Source: Squalus acanthias
Taxonomy: Eukaryota
DNA length: 64,000 nucleotides
Direction of reading: 5' to 3'
NCBI GenBank assembly: GCA_030390025.1
Contig: CM059432.1
Coordinates: 15,688,001-15,752,000, forward strand
Below the pieces are notes generated by a model that did no database searches, had not been told where the DNA came from, and saw only the letters and a program-made list of their open reading frames with translations. A program made the position numbers and the translations under genes. Below are positions 8,195 through 44,851 of the stretch, piece after piece (the stretch's first letter is position 1; the number at the start of each line of letters is the position of its first letter).

Positions 8195-8363
8195 GTGAGG
8201 AGAAATAAATAAATAAATAAATGAACCTCTTTACACATTGATATCTTTTTTGCTACATACATTCTTTAAATGCACCTCCTCAATACTGGCCTTTCAATCA
8301 ATTCCTGCGACAGATCAATGTCTGGGACAAATGCTAACCACACTAACGAAATTTATGTTCTAT

Positions 8364-8554
8364 AATAACAAAAGATGCTGGAAACACTCAGCAGGTCAGG
8401 CAGCATCCATGGAGAGAGAAACAGAGTCTGTGACCCTTCAACCTGAAACATTAACTCTGTTTCTCTCTCCACAGATGCTGCCTGACCTGCTGAGGGTTTC
8501 CAGCATTTTCTGTTGTTATTTCAGATTTCCAGCATCCACAGTATTTTGCTATTG
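8364..8554. mobile_element. Small head-to-head inverted Penelope-like 3'-end fragment (hairpin)
   Basis: Arms 8364-8427 and 8454-8520 are near reverse complements; 14-bp TSD aatttatgttctat at 8350-8363 and 8555-8568. Confidence 0.7.
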
Positions 8555-8649
8555 AATTTATGTTCTATGTTTGGCAAGAAAACCAAGCTGTATTCAGTGT
8601 TGTTACAGTGGTGGTATCATCGCTTGTGTTCTGATTAGAAAGAGGGAGG

Positions 8650-20188: not shown

Positions 20189-21858
20189 CAATTGCTGCTA
20201 GACCTGCCCTGGACATGTGTGGGGTGTAGGATTCGCTGGCCTTGTGGAAGCTGGCAAAGGCAGGCCCGTTCACGTGGGTGGCATTCCATCGCCTTAGAGA
20301 GGCGAGCATGATTGGCTGCAGCGGACACATGGTCCCGTGCAGGAGAGATCACGGACAACTGGCTGCCGCACAGCTCAATGAAGAAATGAAAGAACTCTCT
20401 CACACTGCACTCTGCCTCCGCAGCAACCAATCACACTTGTCTACCTGACCGGTTAATGAAGGAATGACATCCCCACACCCCCACGGCACCCAACGTCCCA
20501 TTTCGAATTAACTGCGACGAGGTCAGTGCTAGAAAACGTTGACAGAATATTGACCAGTAAGTTACCCGTCTCCTCTCCCGATGAGATTGTTCGTTTCCTT
20601 TTGAGGTTTGTATGGCAGGATGAAGTTTGTTCATTTAGGATTGATTTCAGCATTGTGTTTGGATTTGGAAACCAGTCCCACAGGCTGTGGATAGGTTACT
20701 GAACAGGGCTAAAAGTTGTAGAGAGGTTTTTGCAGTTAGAATTGTGTGCCTAGTCCGAGTGGGTGGATTCCCAGCATTTATGAGTTTTGATAGGAGTTTT
20801 AAAAATATGTATCGTTGGTGAGGCTATTAAGCGACTCATTGTTTTGTGGTTTATTTTCAGTACTTGGGATATTATATTAATCTACTTGTTGAGCTCTCTG
20901 AATTCAGATTTCATCTTTATTTTGCTCAAGAGAAAAAAAGACTTGGGTTTTTATATTGCACGTTTCACGACCTCAGGATGTCCTAAAGCACTTTACAAGC
21001 AGTAAACTACTTTTGAAGTGTAGTCACTATTGTAAACCCGGCTCTAGGAAAGCTATGTATTATCATTTGGAAGGGGTTGCAGAGTACTAGCGGGTTACCC
21101 GTGCGTGCATTGGTTGGGGGGGGGGGGGAGAATCAGGCCCTATCTTTGCTGTAAATGCAAACTTGGTCAGCTCTTTGCAAGTATACAGTTTCTTATTCTG
21201 AGCTTTGAAAGGTTGACCACTCCTGTGCCAAATGATTAACGTGAACTCGCACTAGGAAATGTGCTCTTGCGAAGGAGTTAAATATCAGCTTGTGCCTGTC
21301 GGCTAAACTGTGCTTTGTCTCTTGCTCCTAAAAGAAGCAAATAATTGCAATGTATTCTGTATTTTACAAATTTTCATATTTTCAAGTCACTTTTTATTTA
21401 ATCCACTTGTTTTTGTACTAAATTTAAAATTGTCTCCCAGTGAGATGTTCTAAGTTTGTGGCTGTGCGTTGAAAGAATTTGTAATGGAAGTGTGATACTT
21501 GGAATGGTGGATGTAAAGGTTAACTTCAGGGCCATGTGATATCCTGTAGCCTGTTGCATCGAGCAAAACCAGACACCTCCTAGTAAAGGTCTGTCATGTT
21601 TTGTTCAATTTTTAACTAGCTGCTAAAATTTCCAACATTGCTCACTTGTTCTGCTCATAAAGCAATTGTAGCTACGGTCCATTCCAAACTCTTATACACA
21701 ATCAGGTAGTAAAAACAGTTAACTTTCTATTCACATTGTGCACCCTTCAGTAACTCAGCTATAGTGGTCATGATGCGGAGATGCCGGCGTTGGACTGGGG
21801 TGGACAAAAATGAGAAGTCGCACAACACCAGGTTATAGTCCAACAGATTTATTTAAAA

Positions 21859-21896
21859 TTACAAGCTTTCGGAGCTGTCGCCCCTTCCTCAGGTAA
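21859..21896 (-). ncRNA. Minimal hammerhead ribozyme-like motif (mirror copy)
   Basis: Same motif on the - strand with stem II ggggc gaca gctcc. Confidence 0.65.
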
Positions 21897-22669
21897 AGTT
21901 ACAATGAGTGAATCTACAATATTTCACAGTATATAAACACAGAAACTGCAGAGATACAATCTTTCAGGGAAGGTGTCCTTACATCAAAGACACACCAAGA
22001 GCACAGCCAAGACAATGAGATGTGTCACAGGGGGTCCAACGTGTCAAATCCTGCTGTCTGCAGTGTTTTTTTTGGGTTGTTTTTTTGTGTTTTTTAAAAA
22101 CTGGAAAGACAGACAACGATGTCGAGTCACGTTCTGTAGCGTGACATGAACCCGATATCCCTATTGAGGCCGTCCTCATGGGTGCGGAACTTGGCTATCA
22201 GTTTCTGCTCGATGATTTTGCGTTGTCGTGTGTCTCGAAGGCCGCCTTGGAGAACGCTAACCCGCAGATCCGAGGCTGAATTCAGCCTCGGATCTGCGGG
22301 TTAGCGTTCTCCAAGGCGGCCTTCGAGACACACGACAACGCAAAATCATCGAGCAGAAACTGATAGCCAAGTTCCGCACCCATGAGGACGGCCTCAATAG
22401 GGATATCGGGTTCATGTCACGCTACAGAACGTGACTCGACATCGTTGTCTGTCTTTCCAGTTTTTAAAAAAAAACACAAAAAAAACAAACCCAAAAAAAA
22501 AACTGCAGACAGAAGGATTTGACACGTTGGACCCCCTGTGACACATCTCATTGTCTTGGCTGTGCTCTTGGTGTGTCTTTGATGTAAGGACACCTTCCCT
22601 GAAAGATTGTATCTCTGCAGTTTCTGTGTTTATATACTGTGAAATATTGTAGATTCACTCATTGTAACT

Positions 22670-22707
22670 TTACCTGAGGAAGGGGCGACAGCTTCGAAAG
22701 CTTGTAA
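22670..22707 (+). ncRNA. Minimal hammerhead ribozyme-like motif (Penelope pLTR type)
   Basis: ttac-CTGAGGA-a-ggggc gaca gcttc-GAAA-gc-tt-gtaa: core boxes, stem II hairpin, stem I ttac/gtaa, palindromic AGCT in place of stem III. Confidence 0.65.
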
Positions 22708-23184
22708 TTTTAAATAAATCTGTTGGACTATAACCTGGTGTTGTGCGACTTCTCATTTTCAGCTATAGTGAGCAGACCAAGAATATGTCCATCAATATTT
22801 TCTTCAAGAACTGTATAATTACAAAGGGAATGGTAGCTTATAGACAGAACCCACTCAATGGTTCAATCTCTGTAAATTGTTCCCATTGTATTTACGATAT
22901 AATATTCACACCTGCTGTGGAAACCAACAAGTCTCAATGAGCCTTGCAAAATTGGATTGTATTTACCATTGAGAAGACTAGTTGGTTTGATACTGAGCCA
23001 TCCAGACCAAGAAGGTCATAAGTTTGATTTCTGATCTAGTTGATCTTGCTGATCTCAGTGGGATAGCATCGGTACCCCAAGAGCAGGAAGAAAATAAATC
23101 AATCAGGGTTTCTACTGCTACAGAGCACTTTGTAAGAACCTATATCCATTCTAAAAGGACTGTTTCGAACATGCTGTTTTATTG

Positions 23185-28717: not shown

Positions 28718-29337
28718 GACCTAAAAATTTGGTTGCTTTGCGCCTCCCGTTAGCGCCCGGGCGCAGCACTGCCAACGCCTCCCGTGAAATTCAACGGGAG
28801 GTTAGCGGCGGCGGTAACCGTTAGCGCCCCGCGGCACTGCGCCGCCGGCGATGACGTCATCGCCGTGTGCAGCGCCCCGGCCGCGATCTTCGGTAGCGCC
28901 CCCTGACTTACTGCCGGACGCTATGTCCGACGGGGTCAGGGGGGCCTACCTGCGGCCGGGGCGGTGCTAATTAAAGGGAAGGTGCCGAGCGGCCATTTTT
29001 GTTGCTGGCCAACTGCCAGCACCTGCCTCCGTTGCTGTCCCCGGCCTCCTCTGAAGCCCCCCCCGCGGAGTGCCGGCACTCTGATCCCGGGTGGCCCAGC
29101 TAGGCCCCGGGTCGCACTCTGCAAGAAGGGGGGGAAGACCTGCAGTACCGCGGCCACGACGCGGCATGTAGTGCCGTGATATTCACTCGCAGCGCCCCAA
29201 GAGGGAGGCGGGGCGCTCCAGTAGCATCCCGCTTCCCTCTTGGGGCGCTATCGATGAATTTCGGCCGTGTGCGTGCTAATTTTTTCAGGGCGCTACTTTT
29301 AGTGCCCTGGTGAAGTTAGCGCCCCGATTTTTCCCCC
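28718..29337. mobile_element. GC-rich Harbinger-type MITE with multiple tagcgccc subterminal motifs
   Basis: 3-bp flanks ttg/ttg; ends related, in inverted orientation, to 55651-56387. Confidence 0.65.
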
Positions 29338-44485: not shown

Positions 44486-44851
44486 AGGTGGAAAGTAGTA
44501 ACTAATTTCAATCAAGAATTTGTTCCACTTAGTGTATTCCACACCATCATGCATCAAGTATAATTGCTGTAGTTATACTAAGTTAGTCTACAATACTCTC
44601 CAGTAGAGTGTGAATGTACATTTAATCAGAATGCCTACCTTTTCTTAAAAAAAAGCTGATTAAATAACTTGTAGCTGTTCCAAATAAAGACGATAAATGA
44701 TAATCAGAATCCACACATTCTCCACAAATAATGCACCTTTTTAAATGTCGTTCATTGCAACAAGTTACAAGAGCAATCAGATATTTGCAGCTATTTATAA
44801 ATGAGCATCGGCATTTTTAATTCACAGTTTTTTTTCCTTCTTTCCTTTAAG

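Follow-up and report, generated by a model that had tools for sequence, protein, structure and literature searches.

A zero-spacer Penelope-like palindrome in a LAMA1 intron of Squalus acanthias and its possible origin by priming from both target nicks

Introduction

How can one insertion leave two copies of the 3' end of a retroelement joined head to head, cut off at the same internal base, with no nucleotide between them and a single short duplication around the pair? The question is raised by a palindrome of Squalus acanthias found in the 64-kb stretch of DNA analysed here, which is called the window and to which all positions refer. Penelope-like elements (PLEs) typically insert with an inverted 5'-truncated copy next to their 5' end and with a tail of 30–40 bp, often at one end only (PMC8557442), and a curation guide counts inverted pLTRs and short 3' extensions among their usual peculiarities (PMC8969392). 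The overall layout of the palindrome is already known for PLEs, and head-to-head units are locally routine. What has been described as unvalidated are the later steps, namely the end of PLE integration and the origin of inverted copies with a one-sided tail (PMC11167929).

Anatomy of the palindrome

The left arm (21807–22280, minus strand) is the reverse complement of the right arm (22281–22759, plus strand), with a spacer of 0 nt. Both arms derive from one and the same 474-nt segment of a 5'-truncated PLE, which comprises the C-terminus of the endonuclease, the 3' UTR and the terminal repeat. Global alignment places three substitutions between them (21872/22694, 22053/22513 and 22065/22501) and five extra T in the runs of the right arm; counting substitutions, the arms are 99.4% alike. 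The symmetry is perfect over 191 bp on either side of the axis, and every difference lies farther out. Alignment thus confirms, in the assembly, what an earlier note on this DNA had described as reverse-complement arms with no spacer, about three substitutions and differences in homopolymer length. The runner-up among zero-spacer palindromes of the 64-kb window has arms of only 11 bp. Within the window the family is represented by these two inverted truncated copies only, further copies being absent, and at the locus there is no direct partial tandem of the kind that forms pLTRs.

Both outer ends are 3' ends of the element, as the earlier note had proposed. The left arm alone carries 40 extra terminal bases (21767–21806, minus strand); the note had recorded them but missed that they are the well-known PLE tail, of the 30–40 bp described elsewhere (PMC8557442; PMC11167929). 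The right arm ends at the tail-less site.

The unit is bordered by a 12-mer that occurs exactly twice in the window, at 21755–21766 and 22759–22770 (both plus strand), and the composition-based chance of such a match at one fixed place is 7e-8. From its position, the repeat is probably a target-site duplication (TSD). The first T of the right copy also belongs to the T run at the end of the element, and for this reason the duplication is 11 or 12 bp; of the 12-bp flanking repeat claimed earlier, the bordering of both ends stands, and the length has to be widened to these two values.

A single duplication that surrounds the whole unit, with none at the axis, supports the view that the palindrome arose in one insertion event. 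It also bears on the idea that the arms are independent insertions, of which the later one struck the 5' end of the earlier one. The family is indeed very abundant, with 17,905 matching contigs in sequencing run X1 and 13,829 in run X5, but the two arms have identical stops and their 99.4% likeness compares with a spread of 88–100% across the family contigs. The earlier note had set this idea aside, and it is regarded here as barely credible, the least probable of the readings considered.

The host intron

Six exon-like matches to laminin alpha proteins were obtained by tblastn on the plus strand, near 1140, 8080, 44850, 57310, 58030 and 60440, and proteins labelled LAMA1 fit better than LAMA2 (for example, 80–90% against 69–73% identity at 44850). 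The exon matches that flank the palindrome confirm its location inside a LAMA1 intron of about 36.7 kb (8195–44851, plus strand), at whose borders GT and AG are read. We take it to be intron 3 in the numbering of human LAMA1.

This intron most likely carries the palindromic unit as a defunct and neutral passenger. In folding predictions the unit closes into a hairpin of approximately 480 pairs around a 4-nt loop, at −929 kcal/mol for RNA and −619 for DNA, which agrees with the long double-stranded hairpin of about 475 bp that had been foreseen in the LAMA1 pre-mRNA. The window also holds many distant inverted repeat pairs (300–570 bp, 80–92% identity), and therefore intronic double-stranded RNA would not be special to the palindrome. 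As DNA, palindromes that lack a spacer are described as the most recombinogenic ones (PMC7999016).

Two further features of the intron may be mentioned. An AATAAA in the right arm (22713–22718), in the sense of LAMA1 and within the predicted hairpin, could be a cryptic polyadenylation signal, and an imperfect inverted repeat of 40 bp (78%, with a 5-nt loop) lies at 29178–29262.

Identity of the element

The assignment to PLEs made in the earlier note is supported by the endonuclease C-terminus, the hammerhead motif and the tail. The last 50 codons of a GIY-YIG endonuclease and its stop codon are found by tblastn in the left arm (22127–22279, minus strand), and their second copy lies in the right arm (22282–22434, plus strand). 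The left-arm peptide is 92% identical to residues 594–642 of protein P0002, its closest relative, and the arm peptide as a whole reaches 92–94%. All 16 proteins retrieved with the arm peptide are 79–94% identical to it, and those that are named are all from sharks. The 50-residue piece matched no Pfam family when searched alone; among the relatives, P0004 and P0007 match PF01541 (P0007 just under the cut-off), and P0002 carries a DKG motif and a match to PF00078, a reverse transcriptase region that has been truncated away at the locus.

The relatives, rather than the locus, also provide the CX2-5CxxC motif in the linker between reverse transcriptase (RT) and endonuclease and the CCHH cysteines inside the GIY-YIG domain. 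Judged on this motif of the relatives, which Nematis shares, the element would be Neptune-like. According to a preprint, Neptune and Poseidon alone were found among the vertebrates sampled.

A second line of evidence is the putative minimal type I hammerhead, known here by sequence alone, for which the criteria were taken from PMC4209133. A descriptor scan of both strands found two matches in the whole window, one per arm: 21859–21896 on the minus strand and 22670–22707 on the plus strand, the latter in the sense of LAMA1. All three features of the minimal form are present in both arms, that is, the extra base between 9 and 10.1, the G10.1–C11.1 pair and the palindromic helix III region. The search against Rfam gave 15 matches, none at the gathering score and none to a hammerhead; those to miRNA families were rejected, as they reflect the hairpin only.

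A stem-loop formed by the tail and the terminal repeat was also considered and dropped: it appears in the folds, but no better than in shuffled sequences (z of −0.6, −1.1 and +0.6). Terminal repeats of PLEs often take in the start of the ORF. The tail ends in ATG (21767–21775, minus strand), and the ORF of the element may begin at this codon.

Outside the locus, a 25-nt pattern from the terminal repeat found no family copies in metagenome and viral contigs (0 matches). Three loci matched by P0002 at about 30% identity were discarded as not belonging to the family of the palindrome. The shark gene models P0001, P0013 and P0016, named as isoforms of XRCC5, FAM210B and FAM204A, contain the endonuclease peptide of the PLE, which reflects either mis-annotation or exonised PLE pieces.

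Read evidence

Five of the 24 listed runs hold at least half of the sampled words; they come from two studies of one organism, and one of them may be the source of the assembly. Contigs from four runs were compared with the locus over a stretch that takes in the left flank, the left arm and 30 right-arm bases. In run X1, a contig with a depth of 2.9 leads from the left flank through the left TSD copy (21755–21766) into 23 nt of the tail, a length below the 31-letter threshold for bridging. In the left flank, a contig of X5 ends at 21722 (55% of that run was read), and X11 and X16 cover only 21204–21386 and 21511–21661. Among the contigs listed for the four runs, over the stretch compared, none crosses the axis. 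A search of these contigs for the empty site likewise found none, which at such coverage weighs in neither direction.

A G at 21272 is present in X1, X5 and X11 and missing from the window, which represents either an indel error of the assembly or a private allele. Small assembly indels are therefore possible, and they may explain some of the run-length differences between the arms. The ending of the X1 contig 23 nt into the tail was at one point taken as a sign of target preference, an idea that was dropped given that the abundance of the family allows such an end by chance.

The absence of a contig across the axis and the possible indel at 21272 are what would speak for the mirror arm being an assembly fold-back artefact. 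A good number of observations stand against it: the flanking sequences are unique and show no mirror symmetry, three substitutions and a one-sided tail set the arms apart, the duplication abuts the unit precisely on either side, the tail-less end is a site used elsewhere in the family, and a second unit of like anatomy lies in the same LAMA1 intron. An artefact is thus considered highly improbable.

Parent sequence and ends of other copies

The parent element beyond the stop was reconstructed from loose ends in 46 contigs of X1 and 33 of X5. Its translation gives the residues that the endonuclease should have there, and it matches the left arm as far as 22281. Each arm follows the parent one base beyond the axis, and hence both share a self-complementary AT of 2 nt (22280–22281), within a His codon of the endonuclease. 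The axis thus lies in coding sequence, and a palindrome built into the element is absent from the inverted junction. In the parent, the best terminal stems for stops at 22276–22292 have 2–3 bp.

The tail-less end of the right arm recurs: elsewhere in the family, two distinct joints have their ends at 21808 (X1 and X5) and 21809 (X5). Other copies end at the equivalent of 21768–21777. At 37 of the 38 family-variable sites checked, the two arms are in agreement (the sites were drawn from 40 positions, two of them in the flank, and nine further ones stand outside the count), which points to one source RNA or to one very young source.

The symmetric stop is not the rule in the family, and three of the seven joints listed, all three from X1, are head-to-head with unequal arms (21830/21867, 21846/22280 and 22049/22280). 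In the last two, the sense arm starts 3 nt upstream of the stop of the palindrome, which hints at recurrence of the 5' stop, with the proviso that the stretch compared favoured the detection of such joints.

A contig of run X11, from another organism, follows the element to window position 21874 and has a zero-spacer head-to-head junction in a variant hammerhead. This single contig ends 15 bases beyond its own axis, which would be the behaviour of a hairpin in a 31-mer graph.

That other junctions of the family are unequal would fit another history for the locus, in which a head-to-head unit first had a spacer or unequal arms and became a perfect palindrome afterwards, when genomic processing of its hairpin trimmed or converted it. 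The fact that the 191 bp beside the axis are perfect, with all differences farther out, would agree with such a history. On the other hand, the processing of hairpins at palindromes usually breaks symmetry, the centre matches the parent on both sides and shows no scar, and spacer-less palindromes are reported to be the least stable form (PMC7999016). Later symmetrisation is accordingly rated as quite unlikely.

Origin of the two arms

Classical twin priming of L1 yields segments from adjacent, largely non-overlapping parts of the RNA. Here a single segment makes up both arms, which excludes this route; the earlier note had likewise ranked it below fold-back. The same note preferred fold-back synthesis on the nascent cDNA, a proposal that loses ground here in view of the lack of a parent stem at the stop, the AT overlap and the recurrent tail-less end.

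In its full form, the fold-back reading holds that a cDNA begun at the tail site stops and turns back to copy itself; endonuclease cleavage of the copy at the boundary of the tail would follow, and after it the joining to the other target end. It has the merit of explaining the equal stop and the identity of the arms in one step. Self-priming has been proposed from palindromes at inverted junctions (PMC3846280), the tail has been ascribed to endonuclease-mediated resolution (PMC8557442), the endonuclease of D. virilis requires the tail for cleavage (as cited in PMC11167929), and the unequal arms of other copies fit fold-backs with large loops. The junction itself is harder to reconcile with it. 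The 4–6 bases at the centre of a hairpin cannot pair (PMC7999016), so that a loop should remain; the parent offers terminal stems of only 2–3 bp; and the nearest product, with a 2-bp stem and a 3-nt loop, has one central base more than is observed. The axis falls in coding sequence and not in a built-in pLTR palindrome, later work traced the tail to a pair of RT start sites (PMC11167929), and a separate cut is needed to end at the recurrent tail-less site. Taken together, these points make fold-back synthesis doubtful, although it keeps a real share of the probability.

It is on balance probable that synthesis was primed from both nicks, at the two start sites already known, that it stopped at one shared base and that the ends of the two cDNAs annealed. 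The PLE protein would nick both strands of the target, 11–12 bp apart, and each end would prime its own cDNA. Starting at the outer site, one cDNA would include the 40-nt tail; the second would begin at the inner site and lack it. Both cDNAs would stop at one template base inside the endonuclease gene, either because one RNA molecule served for both or because each came upon a recurrent stop. As their 3' ends are identical, the cDNAs would then pair through the terminal AT, and fill-in would leave a zero-spacer palindrome between duplicated target bases. The spacer would be zero because two cDNAs that end at the same base anneal through the AT without any extra letter. The joining step and the shared stop are the parts of this course that we infer.

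The outer ends of the unit agree with priming from both nicks, since they are 3' ends that face their own target ends across an 11–12-bp duplication. The recurrence of the tail-less end as a family site, the agreement of the arms at family-variable sites and the zero-spacer junction of X11 also speak for it. With a duplication of 11 bp both nicks fall at TG|AG, a symmetry that was recognised post hoc and is equalled at 1.0% of 63,800 positions of the window. The enzymatic steps have a precedent in vitro in another PLE, that of the anole, whose protein cleaves and extends both strands, has two adjacent internal RT starts that bound the tail, and is predicted to form a dimer (PMC11167929); that element belongs to the Poseidon clade and not to Neptune. 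With regard to the joining step, L1 insertions made of two cDNAs of opposite orientation joined at microhomology have been reported (PMC11702581).

Other features weigh less or count against it. For the stops to be equal, both cDNAs must have shared one template end, an assumption of this reading. The AT overlap carries little weight, as about one in four stops would show a self-complementary overlap of 2 nt by chance, and the identity of the arms is expected equally under fold-back or later conversion. Unequal head-to-head joints are allowed by priming from both nicks and by fold-back alike.

A more specific version can be put forward, tentatively and as something rather unlikely: a PLE dimer would cut a quasi-symmetric TG|AG site and copy one RNA twice, from starts 40 nt apart. 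Both cDNAs would run off the same 5' end of the RNA and be joined by a self-complementary dinucleotide. No double-priming account of PLE head-to-head units was found in the literature covered, older subscription papers and figure supplements being outside its scope.

Comparison with known systems

The closest parallel is found in the units Pen2a_Av and Pen2 of Adineta vaga, head-to-head structures with TSDs of 8–10 bp and palindromes at their junctions, for which self-priming was proposed in 2013 (PMC3846280). The shark unit shares with them the inverted head-to-head copy, the tail at one end (optional and of 31 bp in Adineta) and the TSD around the whole unit. In Adineta an empty allele has been shown for one unit, flanked by Pen3a (PMC3846280). 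In the Adineta units, which contain a full ORF and direct pLTRs, the junction falls on a palindrome built into the pLTR at its 5' end. In contrast, the shark unit consists of two equal 5'-truncated ends with the axis in the endonuclease coding sequence and no built-in stem.

Compared with the general layout of PLE insertions (PMC8557442), the shark unit is devoid of the partial tandem, which that account considers optional when direct, and its target is not a (TA)n microsatellite; exactly equal arms are not treated in the available text of the same account. The element PAc, a Poseidon of Anolis carolinensis (PMC11167929), supplies the ingredients of priming from both nicks: two RT starts that bound the tail, cleavage and extension of both strands, a predicted dimer and a minimal hammerhead. 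It differs in its clade and in its AT-rich cut site, ATT, and the available text of its account derives no head-to-head units from double priming (PMC11167929). Twin-primed L1 insertions and inverted insertions from two RNAs (PMC11702581) resemble the course proposed here in that RT starts from either end of the target, a TSD is retained and short microhomology joins the cDNAs. They part from it in the template, since the segments of twin-primed L1 are adjacent parts of the RNA and the shark arms are the same part.

The same intron holds a second head-to-head unit, of another family, at 8350–8568, about 150 bp past an exon. Its arms of 66 bp (8362–8427 and 8454–8519, 91% identical) are separated by a centre of 26 nt, an extension of about 35 nt is present on the right arm only, and a direct repeat of 14 bp flanks the whole. 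Its centre is a further sign that symmetric stops are not the rule. From its hammerhead-like pieces, it is presumably also a PLE.

Concluding remarks

One locus does not decide the mechanism of PLEs. The shark locus is, however, a minimal case, in which both primer ends, the start sites and the junction can be read to the base, and it turns the question of integration into a count of the end types per arm, the spacer lengths and the dinucleotides at the axis. If the reading of a dimer that copies one RNA twice were true, the tail would be a trace left by two active sites engaged on a single RNA, and shark genomes would preserve direct, countable fossils of this step in the form of zero-spacer palindromes tailed on one side.
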